DNA of 64,000 nt, taken from NCBI GenBank assembly GCA_031555055.1, contig JAVBUT010000002.1, positions 75,370-139,369 of the forward strand. Direction: 5' to 3'. Positions 5,806 through 54,206 of the stretch are shown one piece after another. This DNA is from Alphaproteobacteria bacterium. Lineage in GTDB: Bacteria; Pseudomonadota; Alphaproteobacteria; Rs-D84. Numbering within the stretch: position 1 is the stretch's first letter; every line of letters begins with the position of its first letter. The notes under the pieces are model-generated. The model had not been told where the DNA came from. It saw nothing but the letters and a program-made list of their open reading frames with translations, and did not search any database. The position numbers were made by a program, and so were the translations under genes.

Positions 5806-5868
5806 TTTATGATTTCTGATTTACGATTTAATAAAAAAATCAGAAATCAGCAATCATAAATCAGAAAT
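5806..5868. repeat. imperfect hairpin built from 7-nt units (TGATTTN / AATCAGA family) abutting the metG start
   Basis: The left arm is tttatgatttctgatttacgattt. The right arm is aaatcagaaatcagcaatcataaatcagaaat and runs directly into ATG 5869. Confidence 0.85.
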
Positions 5869-7884
5869 ATGAATAACAAATTTTTAATCACATCTGCACT
5901 GCCGTACGTTAACAACGTCTTGCATATCGGACATCTGATCGGTTGCTGGCTGCCATCGGACGTATATGCGCGCTTTTGCCGCAGCATGGGTCGCGATGTC
6001 TTGTTTATATGCGGCGCAGACGAATATGGAACCACCAGCGAAATTGGTGCACTGAAAGAAGGCATGCCCGTCGAAGAATACGTTGACAAGTATCGCACAG
6101 AACACGAAAAATCTGTTCGGGATTTTAATTTGTCATTTGATCTGTACGGGCGCACGCATACAGAACTACATACAAAACTGGTACAATCATTATTCACGCG
6201 TCTGGACGAAGAGGGGTTGATTGAAGAACGTACATCAATTCAACCATATTCAGTAAAAGACAAAATGTTTCTGGCCGATCGGTTTGTTATCGGCACATGC
6301 CCGAAATGCGGGTATGACAATGCGTACGGCAACGAATGTGGCCAGTGCGGCACAACACTGGACCCTGGTGATCTGATCAGTCCGCACAGTGCCGTGAACG
6401 CTGATTCTCCGGTCGAAATGCGCGAAACAAAACATCTGTACATCAAACTGTCCGCTATGCAGGACAAATTGCGCGCATGGATAGACTCACGCGTCGGCTG
6501 GCCAAAAACCGCGCTGACTATTGCGAACAAATGGCTGGACGAAGGGCTGCGCGATACGCCGATTACACGCGATCTCAAATGGGGTATTCCGGTAAACAAG
6601 CCAGGGTACGAGAATAAGGTTTTCTATGTGTGGTTTGATGCGCCGTGGGGATATGTTTCAATTTCACAGGCTGCCACCAAAGACTGGGAATCATGGTGGA
6701 AAAATCCAGACTGCCACTACAGACAATTTATGGGCAAAGATAATGTTGCATTCCACGCCGTAACATTTCCATCGCAGCAATTGGCGATCAATGACGGATG
6801 GAAAATGGTCGATGTGCTAAAGGCTTTGAATTTTCTAAATTTCGAAGGCGCAAAAATATCAAAATCGACCGGCAATGGAATTTTCCTGAACGAGGCAATA
6901 AAAGACGCACCGGCGGACGCGTGGCGTTATGCATTAATGGCGTCCGCGCCGGAAACGGATGATACGGACTTTACTATCCAGCGCTTTGCCGATATTGTCA
7001 ACAAGGACCTGAACGGCATGCTGGGGAACTTTGTTTCGCGCGTATGCAAACTGACCGAAAAGAATTTCGGGAATCAGGTACCCGCAGGGGCGAATAATAT
7101 TCGTCCAAATCATCAGGGCGAATGTGATTCGCCCCTACAAAAATCAATCAATGAAAAATTATCGGAATTGACTGCTGCGCTGGACGCGTGCGAATTTCGA
7201 AACGCCGTATTCGCACTGCGCGGACTGTGGGCGATCGGCAACGAATTTATGACGGAAACAGCGCCATGGACGATGGTTAAAAATGGTGATATGGATGGCG
7301 CTGGGGCCGCATTAAACGAATGTTTTCAGCTGATCGATTTTTATGCACGCGTATCCGCACCGTTTATTCCGGACGCGGCGGGGAAAATGCTTCGCATTTT
7401 CAGGAATCAGGAACCAGGAATCAGTTGGCCAAGCGCGTACGAACGCCGCATTGCGGCCGGCACAGAATTTGTCGTACCTGAAAATCTTTTCGAAAGAATC
7501 GATGATGATAAAATTAAATTGTTAACCGAAAAATACGCGTCAAAGAAACTGGACGCGCCGAAAATTGTTACCGCGAAAATATTGACTGTGGACGCGCACC
7601 CGACCAAGGAAGGCCTGGCGGTTCTGACCGTGGACGCGGGCGATGAAAAACCGCTGACAATCGTCTGTGGCGCGCCGAATGTACGGCCGGGCTTTGTCGG
7701 CGTATTGGCACACGTTGGCGCGATTTTGCCCGGCCAGAAAAAGCCGATCACAAAACGCGCTGTCGCCGGCGTCGAAAGCCATGGCATGATGTGCAGCGCC
7801 GCAGAGCTGGGCGTCGGCCAGGACGGTGACAATATTTTGGAACTGGCCGGCGACAGTATGATCGGCGTAAAGTTTAACGCCTAG
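5869..7884 (+). CDS. metG: methionyl-tRNA synthetase with C-terminal tRNA-binding OB-fold domain
   Basis: HIGH-type motif (PYVNNVLHIGHL), Zn knuckles (CPKCG...CGQCG) and KMSKS-type motif (KISKSTGNG). The C-terminal roughly 105 aa form a tRNA_bind-type domain. Confidence 0.9.
   Translation: MNNKFLITSALPYVNNVLHIGHLIGCWLPSDVYARFCRSMGRDVLFICGADEYGTTSEIGALKEGMPVEEYVDKYRTEHEKSVRDFNLSFDLYGRTHTELHTKLVQSLFTRLDEEGLIEERTSIQPYSVKDKMFLADRFVIGTCPKCGYDNAYGNECGQCGTTLDPGDLISPHSAVNADSPVEMRETKHLYIKLSAMQDKLRAWIDSRVGWPKTALTIANKWLDEGLRDTPITRDLKWGIPVNKPGYENKVFYVWFDAPWGYVSISQAATKDWESWWKNPDCHYRQFMGKDNVAFHAVTFPSQQLAINDGWKMVDVLKALNFLNFEGAKISKSTGNGIFLNEAIKDAPADAWRYALMASAPETDDTDFTIQRFADIVNKDLNGMLGNFVSRVCKLTEKNFGNQVPAGANNIRPNHQGECDSPLQKSINEKLSELTAALDACEFRNAVFALRGLWAIGNEFMTETAPWTMVKNGDMDGAGAALNECFQLIDFYARVSAPFIPDAAGKMLRIFRNQEPGISWPSAYERRIAAGTEFVVPENLFERIDDDKIKLLTEKYASKKLDAPKIVTAKILTVDAHPTKEGLAVLTVDAGDEKPLTIVCGAPNVRPGFVGVLAHVGAILPGQKKPITKRAVAGVESHGMMCSAAELGVGQDGDNILELAGDSMIGVKFNA
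7401..7424 (+). repeat. 7-nt tandem array inside metG
   Basis: caggaat caggaac caggaat cag, translated in-frame as RNQEPGIS. Confidence 0.8.
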
Positions 7885-7890
7885 GTCAAC

Positions 7891-8193
7891 ATGAATCCGA
7901 AGATTTTGCAAATTTACTTGTCGCACGCAAACGTCACATACGCGCCGATATACGGCGAAACATTGTCATGCGCGGATTGCACAAATCTGGGCATTTGCGA
8001 AAAAGATCGATATCTGTTTATGCCGAATTGCGCGGTTGCGAATTTTATTATGGAACGTGTTCCCGGCAACATCAGGTATAACGAAGGCGCACGCACCATG
8101 ATCGTGTCATACCGCGAACCGCGAACGCGACTGACAACGTTGCAGCACGCCGTCGATACAGCAAAACAGCAATTTTTTGCGAAAATGAAATGA
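7891..8193 (+). CDS. hypothetical protein
   Basis: 100-aa ORF filling the metG-queH gap. Its stop overlaps the queH start (ATGA). I recognise no motif. Confidence 0.4.
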   Translation: MNPKILQIYLSHANVTYAPIYGETLSCADCTNLGICEKDRYLFMPNCAVANFIMERVPGNIRYNEGARTMIVSYREPRTRLTTLQHAVDTAKQQFFAKMK

Positions 8194-10763: not shown

Positions 10764-10835
10764 TAGCGCATAGCGAGATAGCAAATAGCGCATAGCGTTA
10801 TAGCGAAATCACTAATCACTATACGCTATGCGCTA
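10764..10835. repeat. 7-nt tandem array with palindromic ends (TAGCGCA family)
   Basis: tagcgca tagcgag atagcaa atagcgc atagcgt tatagcg aaatcac taatcac tatacgc tatgcgc ta. The ends tagcgcatagcg and cgctatgcgcta are inverted. The array runs into the candidate mnmG start codons. Confidence 0.85.
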
Positions 10836-12514
10836 TGAACTATATGCTAATGTTAAATTACGACGTAATCATCATCGGTGGGGGGCATGCGGGCGTGGAA
10901 AGCGCAACCGCATCTGCGCGCCGTGGCGCAAACACACTGCTGATTACAAAATCAAAATCCGACCTGGGGGCGATGTCATGCAATCCATCGATCGGTGGTC
11001 CCGGCAAATCACAAATGGTCGCAGAAATGGACGCACTGGGCGGGATTATGCCAATTGCGGCAGATCGCGCGGGAATTCATTGGCGAACGCTGAACGCGAC
11101 CCATGGCGCGGCAACGACGGCCTTGCGCGCGCAGATTGATCGTAAAAAATATCACAACGCGATTGTGGAAATACTATCAGATTATCCGAATTTGACTGTC
11201 GAGTTTGGCGATGTTGAAACATTGGATTTAGAAAATAAAATCGTCAATGGAAACTATTCGGCGCACGCGATTGTTTTAACCACGGGGACTTTCCTGGGCG
11301 GACTGGTCACACGCGGGGCCGAAAAAATCGAATCAGGTCGTCTGCGCGACGATAATACATACCAGGAAAACGATAAAAATATATCAAAAATACTGCAAAA
11401 GGCCGGCTTTTCGATATTAAGATTGAAAACCGGAACGCCCGCACGCATATGGCGCGATTCGATTGATTTTTCCGTCTGCGAAGTGCAATCCAGTGATCTG
11501 GAACACGAATATTTTTCCGGAACGCCACGAATCACGAATCACGAACCACAAATCACGAATTGCTATATCACACACACAAACGAATCTGTTCATCAGTTTA
11601 TCCGCGATAATATTACCGACGCGCCGATGTATAACGGCGATATAACAGGCACCGGGCCGCGATATTGCCCAAGTCTGGAAGACAAGGTCATGCGTTTTCC
11701 GGAACACAAATCGCACCATGTTTTTCTGGAACCCGAAGGCACGGACAGTGATCTGATTTATCCCAACGGAATTTCAACCAGTATGAGTGCCGACGCCCAG
11801 GACAAATGGATACGCATGATCCCAGGACTGGAGAATGCGCGGATCGAACGGTACGGATATGCGATCGAATATGACGCGATTGACGCACGTGCACTGAAAC
11901 CGACGTTGGAATCCAAAGATATTCCGGGACTGTTTTTTGCCGGCCAGATCAACGGCACATCCGGATACGAAGAAGCCGCCGCCCAAGGCATCGTTGCAGG
12001 CGCGAATGCGGCCGGATGTGCGATGGGCGAATATGATTCTCCCATACAAATCGATCGCACGAATTCCATGATCGGGGTTATGATTGACGACATCACAACG
12101 CTGGGCGTGGACGAACCTTACCGTATGTTCACATCACGCGCGGAATTTCGATTGTCGCTGCGCGCGGATAATGCAATTGCGCGTCTGGGTGATATGGCGG
12201 TCAAATTAAATTTGATAACGGAACCCGAACGAAAACAAAAACATGATCAAAAGGCCGGTAAAATCACCGAAAATGATAAATTTTATGCCGGATATATCGC
12301 ACGGAATTTGCGCGAAATCGAAAGTTATAAACGCGATGCAGATTTAAAAATCCCGGAAAATTTCGATTATAAATCATTACCGGGCCTGACCAATGAATTG
12401 GTTGAAAAATTATCCAGAACACGTCCCGCGAATATCGCGTCGCTGGCGCGGATTCCGGGAATTACCCCGGCGGGAATCATGGTCGTACTGCGCAAAATAA
12501 GGACAGGGAATTAA
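10835..12514 (+). CDS. mnmG: tRNA uridine-5-carboxymethylaminomethyl modification enzyme MnmG (GidA)
   Basis: YDVIIIGGGHAGVE FAD motif, GPRYCPSLEDK, and the C-terminal RIPGITPAG. The start is ambiguous (ATG 10835, 10844 or 10850, all in frame). Confidence 0.9.
   Translation: MNYMLMLNYDVIIIGGGHAGVESATASARRGANTLLITKSKSDLGAMSCNPSIGGPGKSQMVAEMDALGGIMPIAADRAGIHWRTLNATHGAATTALRAQIDRKKYHNAIVEILSDYPNLTVEFGDVETLDLENKIVNGNYSAHAIVLTTGTFLGGLVTRGAEKIESGRLRDDNTYQENDKNISKILQKAGFSILRLKTGTPARIWRDSIDFSVCEVQSSDLEHEYFSGTPRITNHEPQITNCYITHTNESVHQFIRDNITDAPMYNGDITGTGPRYCPSLEDKVMRFPEHKSHHVFLEPEGTDSDLIYPNGISTSMSADAQDKWIRMIPGLENARIERYGYAIEYDAIDARALKPTLESKDIPGLFFAGQINGTSGYEEAAAQGIVAGANAAGCAMGEYDSPIQIDRTNSMIGVMIDDITTLGVDEPYRMFTSRAEFRLSLRADNAIARLGDMAVKLNLITEPERKQKHDQKAGKITENDKFYAGYIARNLREIESYKRDADLKIPENFDYKSLPGLTNELVEKLSRTRPANIASLARIPGITPAGIMVVLRKIRTGN
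11526..11560 (+). repeat. 7-nt tandem array inside mnmG
   Basis: cacgaat cacgaat cacgaac cacaaat cacgaat, translated as PRITNHEPQITN. Confidence 0.8.
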
Positions 12515-13113: not shown

Positions 13114-13125
13114 CATAAAATTGTT

Positions 13126-13149
13126 AATGGACGCACTTTTGCGTCCATT
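13126..13149 (+). terminator. hairpin downstream of tRNA-Thr(CGT)
   Basis: aatggacgca-cttt-tgcgtccatt followed by taaaatttt. It is paralogous to the hairpin after tRNA-Thr(GGT). Confidence 0.5.
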
Positions 13150-13331
13150 TAAAATTTTATAGTGCCCACCGTAGTCCGCCAACGGCGCGACGAATGTCGG
13201 GCTATCCAAAAACACATAAAACTTTTTCATCACCGGCTTTTTTGCCGGTTTTTTATTGCGGAATTGCTTCCTGATGATTGTCGGAATCTTTTGTTATAGT
13301 ATTCTGTACAAGTTTACACAAAGGAGAAACT

Positions 13332-14102: not shown

Positions 14103-17100
14103 ATGTCATATAAAAAGACAGATGCAAAAGCGAATTTTACGGCGATCGAACACGAAATGCTGAACGCATGGCGCAGTGGAAATATATTCCATAAATCGCT
14201 GAAACAGACCGAATCCGGAAAACCGTTCAGCTTTTATGACGGACCGCCGTTTGGAAACGGTCTGCCGCACTGGGGGCACTTGGGCGTAACCGCGGTAAAA
14301 GATATGGTATGCAGATACCAGACGATGACTGGTCGCCATGTCCAGCGCGAGCTGGGGTGGGACTGTCACGGATTGCCGGCGGAAAATTCGGTCGAGAAAA
14401 AACAAAAGCGCAGCGCCAAGGATATTGTCGCAAATGACGGCATGGACGTGTTCTGTGATATGTGCCGCATTGACGTCATGACATATACCAAAGAATGGGG
14501 CAGATTTATCGAACGTATGGGTCGCTGGGTTGATATCGGCGACGAATACGGATATCGCACAATGGACCGCGATTATATGGAATCCATGCTGTGGACCTTG
14601 AAAACACTGTATGACCGCGGACTGCTGTACAAGGATTATTCCGTAAACTGGTTCGACTGGGTCAATGGCACAATCGTTTCCAATTCCGAAGCGTCCCAGG
14701 ATTACCGTGATGTTGTCGACGACGCAGTAACGGTATGGTTTGGGCTGGAGAACGGCAGACGGGTTTTGGCATGGACAACGACGCCATGGACGCTGCCTGC
14801 AAACTCTGCCTTGGCCGTGAATCCAAAAATGCAATATGCCGTTATGCGGGACAACGACGGCGCGGAATACATCATCGCAGAATCCAGATTGACCGCCTAT
14901 GAAAAACAGTTCGCAGATGCGACACGCGTCGGCACAATATCTGGCGCGGACCTGGTCGGTTTAAAATATGCACCACTGTTCAATTATTATACCGATGAAA
15001 AGCTGTACCGCATAATTTCCGCCGATTACGTCAGCGACGGCGACGGTACCGGAATCGTGCACATTGCGCCGGCGTATGGCGCCGAAGATTTTTGGGCGGT
15101 AAAGAACATCGACCCGGAATTCCCGGTCATCCTGAACGTCGACAACTATGGAAACTTTACGGCCGATGTTACTGATTTTGCAGGCCAGAATATCTTTGCG
15201 GCCGGGCCACAGATTATCGAAAACCTTAAAAAGGCCGGTAATTTGGTCAAAAAAGAACAATACAAGCACAACTATCCGTACGGCGACCGGTCGCACGAAA
15301 AGTTGATCCAGCGCGCGACTGATTCCTGGTATATCAATGTGCCAAAAATCAAGGATAAACTGCTGGCTAATAATGCAAAGGTTAATTGGACTTCGGCTGG
15401 CGAGCGTTTCCGCGCATGGATTGAAAATGCGCGTCCTTGGGCGATTTCGCGCAACCGTTTCTGGGGAACACCATTGCCGATCTGGACACGTGGCGGCGAA
15501 TTCAAAGTATTCGGATCAATCGCAGAATTGGAAGAATTCTTTGGCGTAAAGATAAACGATCTGCATCGCCCGACATTGGATGCATTGGAAAAAGACGGCT
15601 GGAAACGCATTCCGGACGTTCTGGATTGTTGGGTGGAATCCGGGTCAATGCCATGGGCGTCGCTGCACTATCCGTTCGAAAACACCGACAAATTCAATGC
15701 AACATTTCCGGCGGATTATATTATCGAAGGCCAAGATCAAACCCGCGGATGGTTCTATGCGCTGATGGTTTTGGCGACCGCATTGTTTGATCAGCCTGCA
15801 TTTATGACCGTATCTGCGAACGGTATGATCGTTGATGAAAACAAAAAGAAATTTTCAAAATCATTAGGTAACTTTGTAAATCCCGAAGGACAAATTGAAC
15901 AGTTTGGCGCAGACGCGATCCGCCTGTTCATCCTGGGGTCTAATTTCATGAAGGCCGAGCCTGTCCCCGTCGACAAGGAAGGCAAAGTATTTGCCGAGCC
16001 GATAAAATCGGTCCTGACTCCGTTATGGAATGCGTATCATTTCTTTACGCTGTATGCGAATGCTGGGGATATAAGTGTCAGTGTCAGTGACAGTGTCAGT
16101 GACAGTGTCACCAGAAATATCCTTGACCAATATATTGTCGCAGAATTGGATAGTTTGGTCATCGTCGCGCGCGACGCACTGGACGCATATGCACCAGACC
16201 GTGCACTTGCCAGTGTCACAAGGTTCTTGGACATTTTAAACAACTGGTACATACGTCGTTCACGGGAACGTTTCTGGGACGAAGAGCAGGGCGCATTCGA
16301 TACACTGTACTTTGTTCTGACCGAGCTTTGTAAATTGCTGGCGCCATTCGCACCGTTTATATCAGACTATATCTATAAAAATCTGACAGGCGCAGAATCC
16401 GTGCATCTAGAGAAGTTCCCAGGAATCAAGAATCAAGAATCAGATGCTAATAGTCTGCTGGCCAATATGCGCCAGATTCAAACAATCGTATCCGTCGGGA
16501 AACAGTTGCGTGAAAAGTATGGTATGCGTAATCGCTTGCCGTTGGCATCTATGACGCTGGCTGCGACAAACATCGGCGCGTTTGATAATGCGTACAAAGA
16601 AATTATCGCAGACGAACTGAACGTCAAAAACGTAAACATCGTTGATGAAATTTCATCAGTTGCTGACAGTTTTGTATACCTGATCACGCCGAAAATCGGT
16701 GCGCGTCTGGGTGGCGCGTTGAAAGAAATCATCCCGGCCGTCAAGAATGGAAATTACACTATCGACAACGGGCAACTTATTGTCGATACGATTCACGATT
16801 CACAGTTCACGATTCACGACGATGAATTCGAATCACGTTTAACCATAAAGCCGGGCATCACCGGCGCGGCGCTGCCGGATAATACTGCGGTGGTTGTTCT
16901 GGATACCGAATTGAATTCGGAATTGATCGCCGAAGGTTTGGCAAACGACGCATTGCGCTTTATCCAGGATACGCGCAAGACCGTTGGGTTAAATGTTTCC
17001 GATCGCATAACACTGGAATACAGTGCTGATCCTGCATTGGCGGATGCGATGGAATCGCATCGCGCACGTATCATGGCCGACACATTGGCAACTGATATGA

Positions 17101-17174: not shown

Positions 17175-17603
17175 ATGACAAAAAAGAAAGAAATTATAAA
17201 CGCGGCAGAAAAAAAGTTCGTGGGCAAAATGCACCCGATTACAAAAAAGTATCTGGAACAATTGTACGGTATGACCCGAATATTCGCTTCATGCGACGCC
17301 TTTGGAAATTACACAGATACCGAAGATTGTTTCTGCATATACCCAAACAACAAGGACCAGATCGGACAAATTACAAATCTGCTGGCGATGGTAGGTGTTC
17401 AAAAAATAAAAGAAATAACCGTCAAGGCACCGAAAACGGAAACAGTGATTCTGTTGCCATATCTGGCCAGCAATATTGGATTCCAACGCATTGCGGTCGA
17501 AATGATCGCAAAAGAATTCAAAGACATGGCCCATAAAAACAATGACCTGATGTTTTCATCGATAAAACAAATGTACGCCGCCGAACAAGGCAAAAACAGG
17601 TAA
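17175..17603 (+). CDS. hypothetical protein
   Basis: 142-aa ORF tightly packed between ileS and nth. Its stop overlaps the nth start. Confidence 0.4.
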   Translation: MTKKKEIINAAEKKFVGKMHPITKKYLEQLYGMTRIFASCDAFGNYTDTEDCFCIYPNNKDQIGQITNLLAMVGVQKIKEITVKAPKTETVILLPYLASNIGFQRIAVEMIAKEFKDMAHKNNDLMFSSIKQMYAAEQGKNR

Positions 17604-18311: not shown

Positions 18312-18350
18312 AAAAACACCGGCCTTTTCATCAAAAAGGCCGGTGTTTTT
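18312..18350. terminator. bidirectional terminator between nth and pheT
   Basis: aaaaacaccggcctttt-catca-aaaaggccggtgttttt. Confidence 0.7.
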
Positions 18351-20335: not shown

Positions 20336-20345
20336 TTTATACTCC

Positions 20346-20394: not shown

Positions 20395-20397
20395 GAG

Positions 20398-37532: not shown

Positions 37533-37609
<77 letters not shown>

Positions 37610-43990: not shown

Positions 43991-44259
43991 TAGTCGATAG
44001 TCATTAGTAGGGGCGCAGTCCGAAACGCGCCCCCTACATAAAAAAAAGTATGTCACCCCCCTCGGTCGCTTTGCGACCACTCCCCCCGCAAGCGGGGTGA
44101 GACGCGACAGAGCGTAGGGGCGCATACTTGCGCCCTTTGTTTCTCGTACGCGCGGGTTTGTAGGGGCGCAGTCCGAAACGCGCCATCTGATTTAACTGGG
44201 TTGCTTCGCGTTCGCTCGCAATGACGGATTTGTTCTTAATCACTAAATACTATCGACTA
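43991..44259. mobile_element. MITE-like composite repeat with 18-bp terminal inverted repeats
   Basis: The left end is tagtcgatagtcattagt (43991-44008). The reverse complement of the right end (44242-44259) is tagtcgatagtatttagt, a 16/18 match. The interior is packed with GC-rich hairpins (gtaggggcgca... three times, plus an RPE-like core at 44078-44108) and has no ORF. Confidence 0.4.
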
Positions 44260-44330
44260 ACGACTAATAACTAATTGCTAAATATTTCATATTTGTGTTA
44301 TAATCATACGTACGCAGAGAGAGAAGCGAA

Positions 44331-45596
44331 TTGGTACAGCAAGTTATTTCCATTGACAGAAAAAAATATGCCGTCAGTTTATTCTGGCAGCCTGTCGCCA
44401 GCGGCTTTGTCGCGCGCAATTACGCGCGCAGCCTGTCACGTTCAGTCGATCGAAAGTTAAATCTTTTTTCAGAGTATCGTGCTATGGTCGGTCTGGGTGC
44501 GCGCCGATTTGGTCATCGGTCCGGTATGCCGTCCGCCGCCGCCGAGGTTATGGAATCTTTCGCAGAATTTTCATCGTTTTTGGCGGCATTCAAGGTGGAA
44601 AATAATTTTTGGATCGTCGCTGTACGCAATGGGATAATTTTACAGGACGCGCTGTTTGAAACAGAATCTGCAGCACGTAACGAATATTTGCGCCTGTCAG
44701 GGATGCCAGATTGGGGGTCTGTTTTTGCGCCGGGGTCTTGGTCCATGCCGCGCGCGGTTGAAAAACGGGTCGAAGATGTGGTGACCGGAAATGTCAAGGC
44801 GACACTGCACACGATCAGCCGATTCAAGGCGAACTTTTTGGCGCTGCTGTTGCTGGGGGCGCTTGTCTTGGGATTGGGGTATTTGTTTCATGAACCGATC
44901 GTCAAGGTTTTTGCGCCAAAGCCGCAAGTGTCAGAAATAGACCCGGTGCTGGCTGAAAAATACAAAAGACAAATCGAAGAAAAAAATAAGGAGTTGGATC
45001 AGAAATACGGTCCGCGCGGTGATGTTTCCGCGCCGGAACCTGTGCTTATGCCATATGACCTGTTGCCCGATCCCCAGGCGCGTGCGCGAATATGCTATGC
45101 GGCGACCGGATTTTTGATGCAGCCGATCCCCGGCTGGGTCCAGACAAGTATCGAATGCAACGAGACGCATGCCATAGCCGTGTTTCAACGCGGATTTGGA
45201 AATCTGGCCGATTTTTACGAAGTGGCATCCGGACTGATGCCTGGTGTTTTTGTCGAAGAAAAATCAGAATCTGAAATTCGTGTCACGGCGAAACTGCCGG
45301 GGTTGGTGACTTATTCGTCACTGGAAGAAAAAGACCCGGACACGATTGCGCGCGAAGTAAACACTGCATTCCAACGTCTGGATATGACCGTCGACACAAA
45401 CATTGCGGTCGATCCGGTTAATGACGTGAATGGCGTGAGAAACCTGAATGTCGTCGAAGTTGGTGCAAAATCAAAACTGATCCCGATGGAATTTATGAAA
45501 ATATTCGGCGATCTGTACGGCGTCTATATGACACTGGCCGCGTGGGATGTAAAAAGCAGAACCTGGAACTATGAGGTGATAATCTATGCAAAATAA
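44331..45596 (+). CDS. bitopic membrane protein, PilO(R64)/PilO2/BfpC-position protein of type IVb pilus systems
   Basis: 421 aa with one central TM segment (FLALLLLGALVLGLGYLF). The N-terminus ISIDRKKYAVSLFWQPV resembles my recollection of the IncI1/ICE PilO family. Its position, two genes upstream of the ATPase, fits. Confidence 0.4.
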   Translation: MVQQVISIDRKKYAVSLFWQPVASGFVARNYARSLSRSVDRKLNLFSEYRAMVGLGARRFGHRSGMPSAAAEVMESFAEFSSFLAAFKVENNFWIVAVRNGIILQDALFETESAARNEYLRLSGMPDWGSVFAPGSWSMPRAVEKRVEDVVTGNVKATLHTISRFKANFLALLLLGALVLGLGYLFHEPIVKVFAPKPQVSEIDPVLAEKYKRQIEEKNKELDQKYGPRGDVSAPEPVLMPYDLLPDPQARARICYAATGFLMQPIPGWVQTSIECNETHAIAVFQRGFGNLADFYEVASGLMPGVFVEEKSESEIRVTAKLPGLVTYSSLEEKDPDTIAREVNTAFQRLDMTVDTNIAVDPVNDVNGVRNLNVVEVGAKSKLIPMEFMKIFGDLYGVYMTLAAWDVKSRTWNYEVIIYAK

Positions 45597-46260
45597 TAAA
45601 AAACGAAAAATGAAAAATGAAAAATGTTTTCTTTTCGCACTGGCGGCAATTTTTCTTGCGACACCCGTGTTCGCAGATGCTTTGGATTCCGAAATGGAAG
45701 ATGTATCGGCTGACGCAATCGCGGTATATGATACGACCGGAACCGTGTTTCAGCGTATCACCGATCTGGAACAGGAAAAAGTCCTGATGCAATTGGAAAA
45801 AGAAAAAGCACAATTGGATCTGGAACTGGATCGTCTGGCGGCTGAAAAGATCAAGCTGCATATGGAAATCGACACGCTGTCGGGACGCGCCGAAGAACAA
45901 CAGGCCGCGCTGGATGCGGAACGCGCGAAGCTGGAAGCCGAAATGGCAAAGCTGGAGCGGGAAAAACAATCCATGACATCGTCTGGTGAAAAGTCCGCGC
46001 CAGCAGTAGCGGCCAAGGTGCAGAAAGAAGAACCGGTTGAGAATTTGATCGCAAAAAAATATGCGCTGGTGGATATTATCGGCGCGGGCCGGCAATTGCA
46101 GGCGACCGTCCAGGACACCGCGAACGGCCAGCGTAAAAAAATCACCGTCGGAAAAACTATCGACGGATACACTGTCAAATCTATATCTTTGGACGACGGC
46201 GTGACGTTTGCCAAAGACGATATTATCGAAACGCTGAATATCGGCAAAGAAGTAAAATAA
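45586..46260 (+). CDS. secreted coiled-coil protein with PilP-like C-terminal domain
   Basis: Signal peptide CFLFALAAIFLATPVFA and a long coiled coil (LEKEKAQLDLELDRLAAEKIKL...). The C-terminus LVDIIGAGRQLQATV....ITVGKTIDGYTVKSISLDDGVTF resembles type IVb PilP. Confidence 0.4.
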   Translation: MQNNKKRKMKNEKCFLFALAAIFLATPVFADALDSEMEDVSADAIAVYDTTGTVFQRITDLEQEKVLMQLEKEKAQLDLELDRLAAEKIKLHMEIDTLSGRAEEQQAALDAERAKLEAEMAKLEREKQSMTSSGEKSAPAVAAKVQKEEPVENLIAKKYALVDIIGAGRQLQATVQDTANGQRKKITVGKTIDGYTVKSISLDDGVTFAKDDIIETLNIGKEVK

Positions 46261-46264: not shown

Positions 46265-47905
46265 ATGGAAAACGCATTAGACCAAGTCTTGAATAAAAAG
46301 CGCGAAGCAGGCCAGGCATCCATTCCGGCCGGTCTGGAAAACGCGACGCAAAAAGACATTCTGGATTTTTTGTTTTCTAATAACAACCGGCTGTTGACGG
46401 CGACCGCCGCGGAACTGGAATTGTCCAAGGACACCCAAAATCTGGTCGCATATTTTGACCATGGCGAAATCATAATTTCCCGCACGCACAGATATGACGG
46501 CCGTGTGCTGGCTTTTCTGGAACTGTTGGGCAAAGAAAAACGCCCGATGCTGGCGCCGTATTATTCCGACTTGGGGCTGTTGTCGAATATTTATAAAACG
46601 TACGAAGGCAGGCTGGGCGGTCTAGAGTCCAGATCACGTCTGGATTACGACAACCAGATGCAAAAGGATTTTGTCGATATAATCGCGCGCGCCGCGTCGC
46701 AAAAGGTTTCCGACATACATATCGAAGTTGCCGACCAGACGACGATTTATTTCAGACTGGACGGCAGTTTGCAACCGGTACTGGAATACAATTCCGGGTG
46801 GGGCGAATCATTCGTTCGCGCCGCATTTGCGTCCGCGGATATTTCCAATTCAAACTATGCCCAGAATGAATACCAGTCCGCGCAAAAAGATGGGCGCACG
46901 CCGCTGCGCGGGACCAAGGATTTGTATTTGCCGGGCGGGGTAATCGGTATTCGTATGCAGTTTAATCCGATTGCGTTCGGATCGCGCTATGTCGCTATGC
47001 GCCTGCTGTACGACAACCCCAGTGAAGGGATAAAGACCGAACAGGAATTCGGCGAATATGAACAAAAATTATTAATGCGCCTGCGTTCCTTTCCGACGGG
47101 GATGGTGCTGGTCGCGGGTCCTACGGGTTCCGGTAAATCTACGACGCTGTTCCGCAATATGTCGATGATGCTGAAAGAGCGCAACTATGAAATCAATCTG
47201 ATCACCGTCGAAGACCCGGCGGAACAAAAAATATTCGGTGCGCACCAGATGCCCGTCGTGAATACTTATAACGAAGAACAGCGCGAAGAGAAATTCAACG
47301 AAGCTCTGGCGGCCGCATTGCGCAGTGATCCGGACACGCTGATGGTCGGCGAAATAAGAACGCTGTCGGCGGCGCAATTGACCGTGCGCGGCGCGTTGTC
47401 CGGGCATAATGTCTGGACGACGGTGCACGCCAATTCCGCTATGGCCGCGCTGACGCGTCTGCTGGACATGGGTGTCGAAGGATTCAAACTAAAAGACGAA
47501 ACGATGATGCGCGGATTGGTATCTATGCGCTTGTTTAAAAAACTGTGCCCGTTTTGCCGCGAACGTCTGGCGGATCATCCGAACCATCCCGCGTACAAGC
47601 GCGTGTATGACGCGTTCGGCGAAATCGGCCTGCAACAGGTTTATATCCGCGGCGCCGGGTGCGAAGAATGCAAAGGTGCCGGTACAATCGGCCGTATCAA
47701 GGCGGGTGAGATAATTATCGCGGACAGCGAATTCTTGCGCCGCGCACTGGCCGGCGACACTATTGGCGCGACACGCTATTGGCTGGAAGAGTTGGACGGA
47801 CGCACGCTGAAAGAATCTGCGATGGAACTGATGTTGCAGGGTGTGATCGGCGTGGATGAATTGGAACGCTGGGTCGGATTGCTGGACCAGCCGGGGGTTT
47901 ATTAG
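46265..47905 (+). CDS. GspE/PilB-family secretion ATPase (type IVb PilQ/BfpD/TcpT-like)
   Basis: Walker A GPTGSGKST, Asp box ITVEDPAE, Walker B DPDTLMVGEIR, His box GHNVWTTVHAN and the tetracysteine motif CPFC...CEEC. Confidence 0.85.
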   Translation: MENALDQVLNKKREAGQASIPAGLENATQKDILDFLFSNNNRLLTATAAELELSKDTQNLVAYFDHGEIIISRTHRYDGRVLAFLELLGKEKRPMLAPYYSDLGLLSNIYKTYEGRLGGLESRSRLDYDNQMQKDFVDIIARAASQKVSDIHIEVADQTTIYFRLDGSLQPVLEYNSGWGESFVRAAFASADISNSNYAQNEYQSAQKDGRTPLRGTKDLYLPGGVIGIRMQFNPIAFGSRYVAMRLLYDNPSEGIKTEQEFGEYEQKLLMRLRSFPTGMVLVAGPTGSGKSTTLFRNMSMMLKERNYEINLITVEDPAEQKIFGAHQMPVVNTYNEEQREEKFNEALAAALRSDPDTLMVGEIRTLSAAQLTVRGALSGHNVWTTVHANSAMAALTRLLDMGVEGFKLKDETMMRGLVSMRLFKKLCPFCRERLADHPNHPAYKRVYDAFGEIGLQQVYIRGAGCEECKGAGTIGRIKAGEIIIADSEFLRRALAGDTIGATRYWLEELDGRTLKESAMELMLQGVIGVDELERWVGLLDQPGVY

Positions 47906-47968
47906 TGACAGTGACAGTGACAGTGACAAAAGTGGTCGCTGACACTGACACTGACACTGACACTGATT
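47906..47968. repeat. hexamer-array hairpin filling the ATPase-platform intercistronic gap
   Basis: gtgacagtgacagtgacagtgaca-aaagtggtcgc-tgacactgacactgacactgacactg. It is the twin of 23533-23591. Confidence 0.85.
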
Positions 47969-49039
47969 ATGAACAAACTTGAATTATTTTACGCAAAATG
48001 GTCTTTCCGCTTGAATACAGCTAAGCGGATGGCGCTGTATCGCAAGCTGGCGTCGCTGTTGCGTAATAACTTTACGCTGATGGATGCGCTGGGTCGGATC
48101 GAGCGTGTCGAATCCAAAGGTGGCGCAAAACCGGACGAGCCCTTTGCAATCGTTATGCGCGAATGGCAGAAAAGTCTGGAACGCGGACAGTCTTTTTCCG
48201 ACGCTACGCGCGGATGGGTTCCGGTGAATGAAACGCTGATGATGACACTGGGGGATGTGTCCAAGCTGTCGGTCGCGATCGAAAATGTTGTGCGCGTCGG
48301 GACCGGCGCAACACGGATAAAGCGCGCGATGACATCCGCGGTCGCATATCCGCTGTTTCTGCTGGTGCTGACACTGGGGATTATCATAATGGTCGGGTTG
48401 TACCTGGTGCCGCCTCTGGCCGCGGCCGCGGGGTCTGACATAGTGTGGACCGGCACCGCTGCGTCGCTGGTTTGGGTGGCTGATTTTTCAAAACACTATT
48501 GGTATGTTTTTGCGACCGGATTTTTTTCCGTGGTTTTGGCAGTATGGATCAGTATGCCAATATGGTCGGGACGTCTGCGCACATTGTTTGACAATATCCC
48601 ACCGTGGGGTCTGTATAAAATCCAGATATCCGTCGGATGGCTGATGTCATTGTCGTCTATGGTCGGCGCCGGTGGTGCGGTTCCGGTCGCGATGAAAATG
48701 CTGGCGGACAACGCGAATCCGTATCTGAAAAACATTTTGGAATCGGCGCTGCGGTATATCGCGAACGGTGACAATCTGGGCGCTGCGCTGGCGAATACAG
48801 GGCGTAATTTTCCAAACGAAGAGATAATCGGCGATCTGACAATCTATGCCGACATGAATGGGTTTGATCAGAATCTGGCGCAGATTGCGAACGATTATTT
48901 GGATGAATCCGTCCGTAAAATGGAATCAATTTCAGAAACGCTGAACAGCATTGGCATAATGCTGGTGTCTATCATTATCGGCTGGGTTGTTCTGGGGACA
49001 TTCCAGATGCAGGATCAAATCACCGCCGCTTTGACATAG
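47969..49039 (+). CDS. GspF/PilC-family inner-membrane platform protein
   Basis: 356 aa with two repeats of the T2SSF pattern and three TM segments. It follows the ATPase, as in type II secretion and type IV pilus loci. Confidence 0.75.
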   Translation: MNKLELFYAKWSFRLNTAKRMALYRKLASLLRNNFTLMDALGRIERVESKGGAKPDEPFAIVMREWQKSLERGQSFSDATRGWVPVNETLMMTLGDVSKLSVAIENVVRVGTGATRIKRAMTSAVAYPLFLLVLTLGIIIMVGLYLVPPLAAAAGSDIVWTGTAASLVWVADFSKHYWYVFATGFFSVVLAVWISMPIWSGRLRTLFDNIPPWGLYKIQISVGWLMSLSSMVGAGGAVPVAMKMLADNANPYLKNILESALRYIANGDNLGAALANTGRNFPNEEIIGDLTIYADMNGFDQNLAQIANDYLDESVRKMESISETLNSIGIMLVSIIIGWVVLGTFQMQDQITAALT

Positions 49040-49056
49040 TCAAAGCGGCGGTGATT

Positions 49057-49839: not shown

Positions 49840-49841
49840 AA

Positions 49842-49872
49842 CTTATCACTTTTCACTTGTTAACTATTCACT
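49842..49872. repeat. right 31-bp inverted repeat of the ridA cassette
   Basis: cttatcacttttcacttgttaactattcact, lying 3 nt upstream of the four-helix-bundle start codon. Confidence 0.85.
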
Positions 49873-50465: not shown

Positions 50466-50504
50466 AAAAAATCACCTTTGTTTTTGTAAATTATACCATA
50501 TTTT

Positions 50505-50546
50505 TAGTCATTAGTCACTAGTCATTAGTCAATAGTCAATAGTGCG
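50505..50546. repeat. 7-nt tandem array (TAGTCAT family) upstream of gyrB
   Basis: tagtcat tagtcac tagtcat tagtcaa tagtcaa tagtgcg. An inverted partial copy (cgactattgactagttgcta) lies at 50571-50590. Confidence 0.85.
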
Positions 50547-50644
50547 AAAATATGCGATAAATCCAATGATCGACTATTGACTAGTTGCTATAAAATTGCT
50601 ATGTTTCAAGGGCAAAAAACACAATAAGAAAATACAGAAAGTAG

Positions 50645-53059: not shown

Positions 53060-53076
53060 TAAAAGGATACAAAGAT

Positions 53077-53448
53077 ATGACTTTATATGAAGAAACAATA
53101 AACTTGGTAAATCAAATTATAACCACAGGATCAAGCGGTATAAACGACAGCAAGAGACTTGCGCTGGTTGTCCGTTTAAAAGAACATCTGCAACGCCCAG
53201 AGGTTGCGATACCACAACGTACATTAAAAGCGAATTTAGAAAGAGTTTTAAACAATCGCCAACATTACATGACGACTTCTGATTTTATAAATGATTTAAT
53301 TATGGTAGTTGATGATTTTAAAAAGAAAACGATTTTATTGGATAAGGCAAAACAAAAAATGAAATCTGTTTCTGATTCTGTCCAAGATTTTACAATCGCA
53401 GAAGACGGTACGATAATCCGACATAATTTCAATGATCGGGAAAAATAA
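53077..53448 (+). CDS. hypothetical protein
   Basis: 123-aa ORF. Its stop overlaps the next start (TAATG). I recognise no motif. Confidence 0.35.
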   Translation: MTLYEETINLVNQIITTGSSGINDSKRLALVVRLKEHLQRPEVAIPQRTLKANLERVLNNRQHYMTTSDFINDLIMVVDDFKKKTILLDKAKQKMKSVSDSVQDFTIAEDGTIIRHNFNDREK

Positions 53449-54206
53449 TGTTCACACGCGAATGGTTTTTTGATCTGGATCGGCGTCTGCGTGATGCCGG
53501 CTTGGATTCAGACCGTTCGACGTTTGATGAAATATTAAAAAATCTTCAACCCGCCGCCGCCAAGGCTATGGCGGGCAAAGAAAGCCGGCTTTTGACACCT
53601 GATGAATTCGCACACGAGTGTATTTACGTAATCCTGGCGTCCGGGTTTTCACAAAAAACCGCCAAACGAAAACATACCGAGATTATGGAATATATCAAAA
53701 AGGCCGGTAAAAATCCAATTTTGGAAGAATTGTTAAAAATTTTTAACAACAAAAACAAAATGAATGCGATTATTAAAATTTGGAACAATCGTGAACGGTA
53801 TCAAAACGACTATTATTCAATTAAAAAAAATCATAAATCAGAAATCATAAATCAGAAATTGACTTTTTTATCCACGTTGCCACACATTGGAAAAATAACC
53901 GCGAATCATCTGGCGCGGAATCTGGGTGAAAACGTTGTGAAATACGATATTTGGATTCAGCGACTTGGTGTTTGCTTTGCAAACAAATTCTCAAATTGCA
54001 ATGTTCAAAGTTCAAATATAGATAATGGTAAACTTTGTCCGGAAATTAAATCCGCATGCGATGAAATGTTTGCGCATTTGTCGCGCGAGACAAATCTGCC
54101 AATCGGATATATTGACGTCGTGTTATGGAAGGCAAGCCAGAATAATTTAATTCCACTCCTGCGGAGTGGTGTCGGCGCTGTTTTGCGCGACGGGGAGGGT
54201 TCATGA
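53448..54206 (+). CDS. helix-hairpin-helix protein, possible DNA-glycosylase-like
   Basis: LSTLPHIGKITANHLARNLG looks like an HhH motif. The gene is translationally coupled to ung and contains a 7-nt array. This is a weak call. Confidence 0.3.
   Translation: MFTREWFFDLDRRLRDAGLDSDRSTFDEILKNLQPAAAKAMAGKESRLLTPDEFAHECIYVILASGFSQKTAKRKHTEIMEYIKKAGKNPILEELLKIFNNKNKMNAIIKIWNNRERYQNDYYSIKKNHKSEIINQKLTFLSTLPHIGKITANHLARNLGENVVKYDIWIQRLGVCFANKFSNCNVQSSNIDNGKLCPEIKSACDEMFAHLSRETNLPIGYIDVVLWKASQNNLIPLLRSGVGAVLRDGEGS
53828..53862 (+). repeat. 7-nt tandem array inside the HhH protein gene
   Basis: aaatcat aaatcag aaatcat aaatcag aaattga, translated as NHKSEIINQKL. Confidence 0.85.

Follow-up and report, generated by a model that had tools for sequence, protein, structure and literature searches.

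Heptanucleotide tandem arrays in spacers and in variable loops of housekeeping genes of a gut alphaproteobacterium of the order Rs-D84

Heptanucleotides were the most over-represented class of long simple sequence repeats (SSRs) in bacteria in the survey of Mrazek et al. (2007), as it is cited in two later papers (PMC4692102, PMC4679880). According to these citations, the survey included units of 5-11 nt and linked long SSRs to large, GC-rich, free-living genomes. The citing papers attribute the heptamer excess to polymerase slippage, present it as sporadic across phyla, and refer to the heptameric STRR repeats described in the cyanobacteria Calothrix and Nostoc (PMC4692102, PMC4679880). The GGGAATC repeats of Xanthomonas have 7-nt units with the degenerate consensus GGGANTN, mostly in about four copies (Rehm et al. 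2015, PMC4692102). Approximately 90% of them are intergenic, mostly between co-directional open reading frames (ORFs) and near the upstream ORF; at about 70 loci, two inverted arrays are paired and can form stem-loops, and a minority of 7-11% are inside ORFs (PMC4692102). TAACTGA direct repeats occur in marine Beggiatoaceae (giant sulfur bacteria), cyanobacteria, and Bacteroidetes, as arrays of 2-6 copies that directly precede start codons, and a Shine-Dalgarno sequence is often missing (MacGregor 2015, PMC4679880). The system has one dominant unit, and inverted pairs are almost absent, with one indirect repeat. Because one orientation of the unit has stop codons in all three frames, copies inside ORFs are in the other orientation only, at the termini of mostly hypothetical proteins (PMC4679880).

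The window, which is the whole 64-kb stretch of DNA analyzed here, belongs to an uncultured gut alphaproteobacterium of the order Rs-D84 with a reduced, compact genome of approximately 46% GC. Tandem Repeats Finder (TRF) reported 31 period-7 rows in the window; 50 dinucleotide shuffles averaged 1.74 such rows and never had more than 5. At period 6 it reported six rows, compared with an average of 0.78 and at most 3 in the shuffles. Periods 8-11 were close to the shuffle expectation, and no period apart from 7 and 6 was enriched to a comparable degree over the shuffles in the TRF analysis of the window. A stricter fixed-lag test, with a threshold of at least 13 matches of 14, identified 14 lag-7 segments, where 100 third-order Markov sequences gave 0.02. 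An earlier note, made from the sequence alone, had proposed a non-random family of 7-nt arrays and one of 6-nt arrays in two settings, intercistronic hairpins and in-frame positions in housekeeping genes. Both families and both settings are borne out, and an array is present at every locus it named; its copy numbers of up to ten were too high, the range being 2.1 to 6.2. The density of arrays in the window is 0.47 per kb, with approximately 20 in intergenic spacers and about 14 in-frame within genes. The sequence outside the ORF set, 10% of the total, holds 17 of 36 arrays, and array density is about 12-fold higher in spacers than in genes. The arrays are heptanucleotide SSRs of the long-SSR or STRR-like class, which has been described before. 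The note's suggestion that they belong to no described repeat class was wrong, as heptameric SSRs, including inverted pairs between co-directional genes, are in the literature (PMC4692102, PMC4679880).

An origin of the arrays as artefacts of assembly or sequencing is very improbable. Tandem repeats are prone to assembly errors, and many (AAATCAG)n matches in other genomes are at contig ends. However, L081, an independent Logan contig from a short-read assembly, is identical to the window over the three arrays of lpxK and has one mismatch and no indel in 6501 bases. Furthermore, every host gene is in frame and full length, and orthologous arrays are present in other samples and assemblies. At least 120 genomes, from many phyla, contain the sequence (AAATCAG)3 amid other heptamer arrays. 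In 855 kb from genomes carrying it there are 333 period-7 rows; inverted pairs are among them, and so are arrays located within genuine genes. Heptamer-rich genomes include the window's own, GCA_031554955.1, and Gx481_bin12.

Inverted array pairs fold as hairpins at eight intergenic loci, with energies of -12 to -36 kcal/mol. The hairpin at 5805-5868, built of CTGATTT-type units (3.7 copies) and inverted AAATCAG-type units (4.6 copies), fills the spacer between tRNA-Val and the ATG of metG (5869), and a variant unit (ATG/CAT) is mirrored in its opposite arm. The hairpin at 10764-10843 (-32 kcal/mol), with inverted TAGCGCA/CTATGCG arrays and two copies of AATCACT in the loop, extends from the stop codon of a fabG-like gene into the start codon of mnmG. 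Inverted TCGTGAY/CGAATYA arrays (20345-20406) fill the spacer of pheS and pheT, which are on the minus strand; this spacer is 62 nt long in the window and 15 nt in genome L204. The rpmI-mreC spacer contains inverted GTGATTC/AATCATA arrays (22466-22530), orthologous to a GTAATCG/CGGATTA hairpin of genome L213. The two genomes share both boundaries of the hairpin, the 5' one being GCCGTGATTCGTAAT, whereas the units differ in both arms. Two hairpins are composed of 6-mers. The first (AGTGTC and CTGACA units, 23528-23592, -35 kcal/mol) extends from the stop codon of mreC as far as the following ORF, the start of which is probably ATG 23592; this ORF matched no family and is likely mreD from its operon position. 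In L204 and L213, the same spacer holds array hairpins built of other units. The second (AGTGAC in 4.2 copies and CTGACA in 4.7, 47904-47966) extends exactly from the T2SSE stop codon to the T2SSF ATG, in a gap of 63 nt in the window versus 2 nt in genome L083. All four of its left-arm units carry an identical T>A change that produces one mismatch per unit, and both its arms and its loop resemble those of the hairpin at 23528. Inverted AGGTTTG/CAAACCT arrays (27004-27066) extend from the rodA stop codon towards topA, in a spacer that in L213 holds an AATTAAG/TTAATTC hairpin. The hairpin at 50504-50590, with a left arm of TTAGTCA (5.7 copies), a long loop, and a right arm of inverted TGACTAR, occupies the divergent spacer upstream of gyrB.

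Spacers also contain direct arrays, all on the plus strand: ACGAATC/ACAAGTC (3.4 copies, 22606-22640) upstream of mreC; AATATCT (3.3 copies, 25825-25847) between mrdA and rodA, 3 nt ahead of the ATG of rodA; ATTTATG (4.9 copies, 32432-32465) between the divergent ychF and SufBD-like genes; ACTAACG (2.7 copies, 44249-44275) in a 366-nt spacer upstream of a PilO-like gene; AATGAAA (4.6 copies, 45595-45626), with an ATG in every unit, where the PilO-like and PilP-like genes meet; and a weak ACTTTTC array (4.4 copies, 49841-49872). Two loci that had been listed as hairpins together with the eight that fold, 25824-25848 and 32431-32465, are direct arrays and not convincing hairpins.

The hairpins were rejected as intrinsic terminators, because they lack a U-tract and are located inside operons. 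It has also been considered that they are selected RNA (or DNA) elements, for which the tandem structure would be a way of building stems. They could then act as mRNA stabilizers or processing sites, in translational coupling, or as multivalent binding sites of a regulator, as proposed for TAACTGA. The stems reach exactly from the stop codon of the preceding gene to 0-14 nt from the start codon of the following gene, and a terminating ribosome would therefore open the stem base beside the start codon. Variant units are mirrored between arms, and the mreC-mreD hairpins of three related genomes have unrelated sequences, so that structure would be kept and sequence not. However, approximately one-quarter of spacers are occupied, and shared occupancy is therefore expected by chance. 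No hairpin is present in the pheS-pheT and mrdA-rodA spacers of L204 or in the T2SSE/F gap of L083, and array hairpins are absent altogether from about 80 Enterousia-like relatives. The antisense fold is the more stable in five of six oriented hairpins, and there is neither a sense-strand advantage nor a G-U signature. The hairpin at 47904 tolerates a mismatch in every unit, and the same units occur inside genes, where such a role is inapplicable. A selected element is thus quite unlikely.

In-frame arrays are located in metG, mnmG, ileS, mrdA, ychF, lpxK, and two unnamed ORFs. Pfam identifies metG, mnmG, ileS, and the PBP2/mrdA-type gene, and matches to solved structures identify lpxK and ychF, in agreement with the names given previously. 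All host ORFs are intact and align over their full length to homologues; the encoded peptides are hydrophilic, and both properties had been noted correctly. All arrays except that of ychF are on the plus strand. The metG array (TCAGGAA, 3.6 copies, 7400-7424) encodes RNQEPGI with a net gain of 1 aa relative to six orthologues, and an internal metG hairpin with CGAAT/ATTCG-containing arms (7086-7136, plus strand, -32 kcal/mol) coincides with an insertion of 9 aa relative to Enterousia-like MetG. The mnmG array (CACGAAT, 5 copies, 11526-11560) encodes PRITNHEPQITN, a net gain of 1 aa relative to E. coli MnmG and of 2 aa relative to L204, which has CATCGTA (2.4 copies) in this loop. At two positions the array departs from the perfect unit, which restores Pro and Gln, both also present in E. 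coli MnmG; this points to selection against homogenization. The ileS gene contains a 6-mer array (AGTGTC/AGTGAC, 6.2 copies, 16074-16110) encoding SVSVSDSVSDSV (net +2 to +5 aa), a GAATCAA array (2.9 copies, 16423-16442, net +2 to +3 aa) in a loop where L204 has TCGTCCT (2.3 copies), and an ACGATTC array (4.6 copies, 16788-16819, net +5 aa) encoding TIHDSQFTIHD. The short mrdA (PBP2) array (GGAATCA, 2.3 copies, 25424-25439) entails no net length change relative to L204. The ychF array (AGAAATC, 4.7 copies, 31838-31870, minus strand) encodes QIRNQKSEIGN, a net gain of 1 aa relative to H. influenzae YchF (1JAL). Array 1 of lpxK (two copies of AAAAGGA followed by 3.3 of AATCAGA, 41896-41931, net +4 aa) encodes KKESEIRNQK; array 2 is AAATCAA/AAATCAC (4.7 copies, 42012-42044, net +4 aa) and array 3 is ATCAGGA/ATCAGAA (5.3 copies, 42208-42244, net about +6 aa). 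A weak ACCGCGA array (3 copies, 8111-8130) lies in an unnamed 100-aa ORF, and an AAATCAT AAATCAG array (2.3 copies, 53828-53859, encoding NHKSEIINQK) and a weak TCAAAGT array (3.7 copies, 53991-54016) share an unnamed 252-aa ORF. The gene at 53448-54206, previously called an HhH gene, has no Pfam or NCBIfam match; the actual HhH-GPD gene is at 17603-18310.

The in-gene arrays span 7-12 codons, always at alignment-variable positions, whereas the net length change relative to orthologues is just 0 to +6 aa. Judged from these alignments, the arrays overwrite pre-existing variable loops and are not the simple insertions that had been assumed. Arrays 2 and 3 of lpxK have the same site, frame, and length as in L083 and L082, respectively (LpxK 61-62% identical), with AATCAGG (3.6 copies) in the same frame at the array 3 site of L082 and a decayed copy of equal length opposite array 2 in L083. 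Yet neighboring units of both arrays are identical in the window, which suggests concerted evolution. The decayed copy is, in part, a case of an orthologous peptide without nucleotide periodicity, which the earlier note had counted as evidence against the family; the decay indicates age and turnover rather than the absence of the phenomenon. Genomes with 20-40% protein difference can share orthologous arrays and hairpins, while the units within one array are near-identical. Units of 11 of the 14 in-gene arrays are stop-free in all sense-strand frames and have TGA in all three frames when reverse-complemented, compared with 27% of random stop-free heptamers that are closed in all three frames when inverted; orientation is therefore simply filtered. 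The proposal that frame preservation implies selection on copy number or insertion length holds insofar as selection must filter for frame, but with this orientation filter no special control of copy number is needed.

Unit families are strongly shared within the genome. The core AATCA is common to 14 of 30 arrays (null 3.2%, p about 1e-13) and was not found to be over-represented outside arrays. The loci 32432-32465 and 5844 have a common non-periodic 18-nt string, AAATCAGCAATCATAAAT. In L204, a different family, CATCGTC, dominates at the same MnmG and IleS loops. Two hairpins of L213 with different unit counts have common termini and the common loop TTGCGGTCGG, which hints that sequence is copied from one locus to another. 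Another palindromic element, which is GC-rich, occupies non-orthologous sites in the window and L213, and small dispersed elements therefore do move in the subclade. These observations, and the likeness of hairpins 23528 and 47904, favor tiny elements that are mobile or copied, like REPIN, MITE, or the SDR of cyanobacteria, and that a trans-acting enzyme or ectopic gene conversion would spread between loci before slippage merely adjusts the copy number. Such an origin is possible but unlikely. There is no consensus element, as units, loops, and lengths are specific to each locus, and comparison of the filled and empty T2SSE/F sites reveals no target-site duplication or terminal inverted repeats. 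A Pfam scan of approximately 55 ORFs of the window, itself part of the genome, revealed no gene for a transposase, a RAYT, or a reverse transcriptase. The in-gene arrays overwrite rather than insert, and the unit after mreC seems to have been seeded locally, as the stop codon of mreC is followed by TAGTGA in L213 as well as in the window.

The explanation that we favor, with a probability of approximately 0.6, is that the arrays are heptanucleotide microsatellites that proliferated in one Rs-D84 sub-lineage by slippage and out-of-register templating filtered by selection. Replication slippage and transient use of the template 7 nt out of register would generate new units and homogenize old ones. 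Within genes, only length-neutral or multiple-of-3 outcomes would survive, and an array would therefore spread through a tolerant loop by templated substitutions, not clean insertion. In spacers, arrays could expand freely until the gap between the stop codon and the ribosome-binding site is full, and inverted arms may be created, or kept alike, by fold-back (quasi-palindrome) template switching. Any influence that the hairpins may have on the stability of mRNA or on translational coupling would be secondary. The slippage explanation is supported by the enrichment of period 7 with neighboring periods at chance, by the identical change in the left-arm units of hairpin 47904, which represents within-arm homogenization despite mismatches, by the spacer insertions at the T2SSE/F and pheS/T gaps relative to L083 and L204, and by the conserved boundaries and different units of the rpmI-mreC hairpin. 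It is also supported by the concentration of arrays outside the ORF set, the orientation filter, the small net length changes in variable loops, the two departures in mnmG, the concerted evolution in lpxK, the lack of a sense-strand advantage of the hairpins, and the occurrence of period-7 arrays in genomes of many phyla. Local slippage alone explains neither the AATCA bias among arrays nor the different dominant family of L204 at the same loops, and the non-periodic strings common to distant loci argue against it. Net insert sizes of 3-18 nt are not multiples of 7, and extra events must therefore be assumed. No strain polymorphism of the arrays was observed, and the explanation does not account for the period of 7.

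The STRR1-3 unit sequences of cyanobacteria differ from the units of the window. The host, with its small genome, approximately 46% GC, and gut association, differs from the long-SSR genomes of Mrazek et al. as these are characterized in later citations. As in Xanthomonas, 7-nt arrays form inverted pairs between co-directional genes, with a minority in ORFs, and the unit GGAATCA resembles GGGAATC. In contrast to Xanthomonas, the window combines several unit families unrelated to one another with a 6-mer family, approximately 40% of arrays are in genes rather than 7-11%, and the host is a reduced-genome gut symbiont; because the units are A-rich, not G-rich, they have no G-quadruplex potential. 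Features shared with the TAACTGA system are heptamer arrays just upstream of start codons, an orientation restricted by stops in ORFs, and a related core (CTGATAA there, CTGATTT here); unlike TAACTGA, in-ORF copies of the window are internal to essential enzymes. Rickettsia palindromic elements (RPEs) are likewise alphaproteobacterial palindromic repeats in-frame within essential genes that they do not destroy, and the metG hairpin at 7086-7136 is the most similar to them. RPEs are 100-150 bp long, have a family consensus, and lack an internal periodicity of 7 nt, whereas the elements of the window are 20-90 nt long without consensus. Similarly to REP/BIME/REPIN sequences, the hairpins are short palindromes outside genes, frequently arranged as inverted doublets, which are located between co-directional or convergent genes and belong to genome-specific sequence families. 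REPs have a conserved consensus of 20-40 nt, are not tandem heptamers, avoid coding sequence, and are associated with RAYT transposases; no RAYT gene was seen in the window. New in comparison with the known systems are the density of 0.47 arrays per kb in an Rs-D84 host with a reduced genome, the replacement of variable loops by in-gene arrays instead of clean insertion, and the presence of arrays, some with different units, at the same loops and spacers of related genomes.

Heptamer arrays, that is, tandem runs of 7-nt units, are a real and striking feature of the window. TRF returned 68 rows in the 64 kb, 31 of them with period 7 and six with period 6. In 50 dinucleotide-preserving shuffles, the comparison proposed in the earlier note, rows of period 7 numbered 1.74 on average and five at most, those of period 6 numbered 0.78 on average and three at most, and periods 8–11 in the window were near chance. 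The units of the period-7 rows follow each other head to tail in 2.1–5.7 copies with 73–100% matches. The specificity for period 7 is also evident from a stricter count, in which a segment was defined by at least 13 of 14 matches at a fixed lag and third-order Markov sequences served as the null. Lag 7 gave 14 segments, lag 6 five, and lags 2–5 and 8–10 none, whereas the null yielded about 0.02 per lag. An array is present at every locus listed in the earlier note; its figure of 3 to 10 copies is slightly generous, as the measured range is 2.1–6.2. An independent Logan contig (L081, SRR23967709) matches 6501 bases of the window, including the three arrays of lpxK (41896–41931, 42012–42044, and 42208–42244), with one mismatch and no indels. 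This short-read contig, together with arrays at the same places in other assemblies of relatives, rules out an assembly artefact.

The window encodes IF3, tRNA-Val, metG, queH, fabD/fabG-like genes, mnmG, ileS, an HhH-GPD glycosylase, pheST, rplT, mreC, PBP2 (mrdA), rodA, topA, dnaG, ychF, VirB3/VirB4-like genes, lpxK, lpxC, a type IV pilus/T2SS cluster, gyrB, and aspS. The gene at 53448–54206, previously labelled as an HhH gene, has no match in Pfam or NCBIfam, and the true HhH-GPD/EndoIII-like gene is located at 17603–18310. The closest relatives are uncultured gut Alphaproteobacteria named 'Candidatus Enterousia', 'Rickettsiales bacterium', or 'Alphaproteobacteria bacterium', with best protein identities of 70% for MetG, 64% for LpxK, and 78% for both IleS and PBP2. 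Enterousia has been placed in Rs-D84, an uncultured order with genomes no larger than about 1 Mb (PMC12306168). The segment at approximately 32500–40000, which contains the VirB3/VirB4-like genes and tRNA-Met, has a low GC content (39–41%). Arrays of the AATCA type are absent from it, with just an AAACAAA run of low complexity present, and the segment may be an island that was acquired more recently.

About 20 of the 36 non-overlapping arrays of period 6 or 7 are located in spacers, and 17 of the 36 fall in non-ORF sequence, which forms only about 10% of the window. This bias corresponds to an approximately 12-fold enrichment, and the arrays abut stop and start codons. The gene-start arrays at 45595–45626 (AATGAAA) and 32432–32465 (ATTTATG) contain an ATG in each unit, so that slippage would do no more than move the start codon or alter the length of the N-terminus. 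At eight loci, inverted array pairs fold as hairpins of −12 to −36 kcal/mol. The hairpins usually start at or beside the upstream stop codon and finish 0–14 nt before the next start codon, between co-directional genes within the mreC-mrdA-rodA and pheS-pheT clusters. No T-run follows any of them, while ordinary GC-rich, canonical terminators occur elsewhere in the window (e.g., 18312–18350 and 49018–49056). Therefore, the array hairpins are not intrinsic terminators, and their positions inside gene clusters lead to the same conclusion. Near-identical hairpins with 21-nt arms (AAAATTGTTRATGGVCGCA ...) are positioned directly after both tRNA-Thr genes (13115–13160 and 58051–58094), which probably have a terminator or processing element in common.

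The stem base of the array hairpins spans stop and start codons, a geometry that would suit translational coupling. The intercistronic hairpins may have a selected role; we regard this as rather improbable. When both strands were folded, the sense strand had no advantage, and the antisense strand was more stable in five of six oriented hairpins. Nothing therefore points to G-U pairing, and selection at the RNA level through sense-strand G-U pairs was rejected. In the hairpin between tRNA-Val and metG (5805–5868) the unit variants are mirrored in both arms. In the hairpin between T2SSE and T2SSF (47904–47966) all four units of the left arm are AGTGAC and the right arm is (CTGACA)n, which results in one mismatch per unit. 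A mismatch in every unit indicates that homogenisation along an arm outpaces any force for arm complementarity.

About 14 arrays, approximately 40% of the total, are located in frame within genes: metG, mnmG, ileS (three), mrdA, ychF, lpxK (three), and two unnamed ORFs. This share exceeds the figures reported elsewhere. Three copies of a 7-nt unit traverse all three frames, and (AAATCAG)3 consequently always encodes a cyclic version of KSEIRNQ. The orientation of the units in genes is filtered: reversing and complementing the unit would place a TGA in each of the three frames for 11 of the 14 in-gene arrays, compared to 27% of random stop-free heptamers. This filter accounts for the uniform orientation on the sense strand. 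The arrays are not contingency loci for phase variation, in which frameshifts switch surface or restriction-modification genes on and off, as they reside in essential housekeeping genes that all remain in frame.

The view of the in-gene segments as clean insertions had to be abandoned. The arrays span 7–12 codons, whereas the net change in length relative to orthologues is far smaller: one additional residue in YchF (versus 1JAL), MnmG (versus E. coli), and MetG (versus six relatives), none in PBP2 (versus L204, a locus of GCA_031554955.1), two to five in IleS, and four, four, and about six in LpxK. All in-gene arrays are located in loops, at alignment-variable positions. Two deviations from the perfect unit in the mnmG array restore Pro and Gln, residues that E. 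coli MnmG also has there, as would be expected if purifying selection resists homogenisation. A second PDB search, with the loop of MnmG, gave matches to E. coli-like sequences alone and no further information. In addition, metG contains a strong internal hairpin of −32 kcal/mol (7086–7136) at the site of a nine-residue insertion relative to Enterousia-like MetG; its counterpart in GCA_031554955.1 is equal in length and unrelated in sequence.

The core AATCA/TGATT is present in 14 of 30 period-7 arrays, compared to 3.2% expected from window heptamers (p about 1e-13). Other unit families are TAGCGCA, AGGTTTG, TTAGTCA, AATATCT, and the 6-mer AGTGAC/AGTGTC. Outside the arrays, AATCA, GAATCA, AAATCAG, GTGACA, and TAGTCA occur at expectation, and the array words are thus not dispersed single-copy motifs of the DUS, HIP1, or REP kind. 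Distant loci also have non-periodic strings in common, for example the 18-nt AAATCAGCAATCATAAAT at 5844 and 32432. The window contains 214 sites of the CcrM motif GANTC (197 GAATC/GATTC and 17 GACTC/GAGTC), 22 of which (about 10%) are within arrays that occupy 1.9% of the sequence. However, the commonest unit, AAATCAG, lacks GANTC, and the motif is not depleted genome-wide. Arrays of CcrM sites were therefore rejected as an explanation, and the GAATC/GATTC within many units is treated as a by-product.

Enterousia-like loci (25 around metG and 80 around mrdA, 1.04 Mb) have no excess of period 7, which yields 0.07 rows per kb and is less common than periods 9, 10, and 12. Two genomes are array-rich exceptions: Gx481_bin12 (L022 and L213), with 13 period-7 rows in 13.8 kb, and GCA_031554955.1, with eight in 23 kb. 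The Gx481_bin12 locus L213 has the ACGAATC/ACGAGTC family in common with the window, and its mre operon contains array hairpins, built from other units, in the four spacers that also have them in the window. The rpmI-mreC hairpin (22466–22530 in the window) is clearly orthologous in the two genomes, with identical boundaries (GCCGTGATTCGTAAT ... TACCARTCA) and different units in both arms. The dominant family of GCA_031554955.1 differs (CATCGTC, CATCGTA, TCGTCCT) and occupies the same MnmG and IleS loops as CACGAAT and GAATCAA of the window. A relative with a 61% identical LpxK (L082) has (AATCAGG) x3.6 at the site and in the frame of lpxK array 3, and another lpxK locus (L083) has a decayed copy of array 2, unchanged in length. 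The choice of units is thus lineage-dependent, not absolute: L213 and L082 share the ACGAATC and AATCAGG families of the window, which excludes a strictly genome-specific family, though that of GCA_031554955.1 differs. In the lpxK comparison the flanking codons are saturated with change and neighbouring units of the window are identical, and therefore the arrays must be continually re-homogenised.

Orthologous arrays with turned-over units are found between genomes 20–40% apart, and the near-identical contig L081 shows no difference. It was the single Logan contig retrieved by an exact-protein look-up of LpxC, and is effectively identical to the window; RodA and T2SSF look-ups gave no record, and no match emerged when JGI metagenomes were scanned for the flanks of lpxK array 3 separated by a variable gap. 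A TTAGTGG/ACTAACC heptamer array occurs at similar positions in several Enterousia genomes that are otherwise array-poor (L224 521–629, where it is paired, L277 533–573, L245 13323–13346, and L285 12844–12870). The lpxK neighbourhood of L083 includes what looks like a mobile island (1273–5488), where an RVT_1 reverse transcriptase is encoded together with a resolvase and a phage integrase; TRF gives no period-7 arrays at this locus.

Compared with some relatives, the spacer hairpins are inserted sequence: the gap between T2SSE and T2SSF measures 63 nt in the window and 2 nt in L083, and the pheS/pheT gap (hairpin 20345–20406) is 62 nt compared to 15 nt in GCA_031554955.1. It is conceivable, but unlikely, that a mobile element or a conversion process spreads the arrays. 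Non-random, lineage-dependent units and hints of copying between loci speak for such spreading; no target-site duplication is visible between filled and empty T2SSE/F and pheS/T sites, and the window ORFs scanned against Pfam include no RAYT (Y1 transposase), other transposase, or reverse transcriptase.

The explanation that we favour, with a probability of about 60%, is slippage and templating filtered by selection. Slippage and transient templating 7 nt out of register would make and homogenise the units. In genes, frame-neutral outcomes alone would survive, so that the arrays would spread through tolerant loops by templated substitution, and in spacers they would grow until the gap is filled. 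The inverted arm may be generated or maintained by fold-back (quasi-palindrome) templating. The main weakness of the slippage explanation is the non-random, lineage-dependent choice of units and the hints of copying between loci, which leave room for the mobile-element or conversion process and for selected hairpins. A dedicated, sequence-selective process that writes the arrays and keeps loci homogeneous, in place of passive slippage, is very improbable. Candidates for it would be a transposase that recognises hairpins, a polymerase or primase working in a 7-nt register, and ectopic conversion at high frequency. Under this reading every genome would keep a unit family of its own, which would repeatedly colonise the same permissive protein loops and intercistronic gaps, and the arrays would be an unrecognised class of micro-mobile elements in many phyla.

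The excess of 7-nt repeats in bacteria has been on record since 1990 and was described once more in 2007. The three array-rich genomes and about 80 sisters without period-7 excess provide a natural comparison, the value of which is increased by orthologous arrays inside well-understood essential enzymes. Such a comparison could link particular repair or replication genes to heptamer richness and reveal how arrays extend within coding sequence that stays intact. Annotators should be aware that odd KSEIRNQ-like stretches in housekeeping proteins derive from repeat DNA.

The exact 21-mer (AAATCAG)3 is present in at least 120 species-representative genomes, compared to about 0.3 matches expected by chance in 596 Gb according to our arithmetic. 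Among the matches listed, the hosts are Chitinophagales, Verrucomicrobia, Chloroflexi, Planctomycetes, Acidobacteria, Nostoc, Brachyspira, Burkholderia, and others. The 855 kb around these matches contain 333 period-7 rows, only 121 of which have the seed unit, far fewer rows of other periods, and inverted neighbouring array pairs. In nine of ten cases checked there, the array-bearing ORF has a Pfam match, to families including peptidase M1, YjeF, a MalT-type regulator, an MMPL transporter, transketolase, SNF2 helicase, and sulfatase. In-frame heptamer arrays and inverted pairs are therefore widespread and not peculiar to this genome.

The statement that the arrays are not REP/BIME, ERIC, RPE, Correia, or CRISPR is correct. 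The palindromic consensus of about 20–40 nt of REP/BIME/REPIN is absent, loci share periodic units only (the longest shared non-periodic strings, 14–23 nt, are inside arrays), and the arrays are not strictly extragenic, as about 14 and one hairpin are in genes. MITE, Correia, and ERIC elements have terminal inverted repeats and target-site duplications and measure about 100–400 bp, whereas the window elements are 20–90 nt long and lack a duplication. Rickettsia palindromic elements resemble the arrays in being in frame, but not in size or consensus (100–150 bp). CRISPR has 24–48-nt repeats with unique spacers of similar length, unlike the contiguous 6–7-mers without spacers. The units of strict Calothrix/Nostoc STRR1–3 differ from those of the window (AATCA-core, TAGCGCA, AGGTTTG, TAGTCAT, and similar).

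Two further inverted repeats were observed. A GC-rich 30-nt repeat (59660–59689/59753–59782) has a 22-nt core, TTCGCCGAGGCTTCGGCGGGCA, that recurs at L213 2710–2731 in a non-orthologous pheS-pheT spacer and differs only at the degenerate W (A for T); it represents a second, REP-like dispersed element of the subclade, unrelated to the heptamers. The other (8282–8311/8378–8407), in the QueH-like ORF region, is 30 nt long and 90% complementary, with a C/G-rich core (CTCCCCCCTTGCGGGGGAG).

The claim that the arrays belong to no described class is incorrect, because heptamer arrays have been published (PMC4679880, PMC4692102). In Beggiatoaceae, cyanobacteria, and Bacteroidetes, TAACTGA arrays, closed in all frames in one orientation, directly precede start codons (MacGregor 2015, PMC4679880). 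As cited there, Mrazek et al. 2007 found heptanucleotide repeats to be the most abundant class of long SSRs in most genomes, which may reflect a polymerase contact of 7 nt. Rehm et al. 2015 described GGGGAYT arrays of Nostoc, mentioned Calothrix heptamers and the GTGATTA repeat of H. pylori, and stated that detailed literature on heptameric repeats does not exist (PMC4692102). The window arrays are a new member of this known but poorly understood heptanucleotide kind of long SSR, not a new repeat class, with tandem 7-nt units, a period-7-specific excess, a bias towards intergenic regions and ORF ends, and inverted pairs. Xanthomonas has 186 GGGAATC-type arrays, 89–93% of them intergenic and mostly between co-directional ORFs, and in 70 cases two convergent arrays could fold into a stem-loop (Rehm et al. 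2015, PMC4692102); eight loci of the window have such paired inverted arrays.
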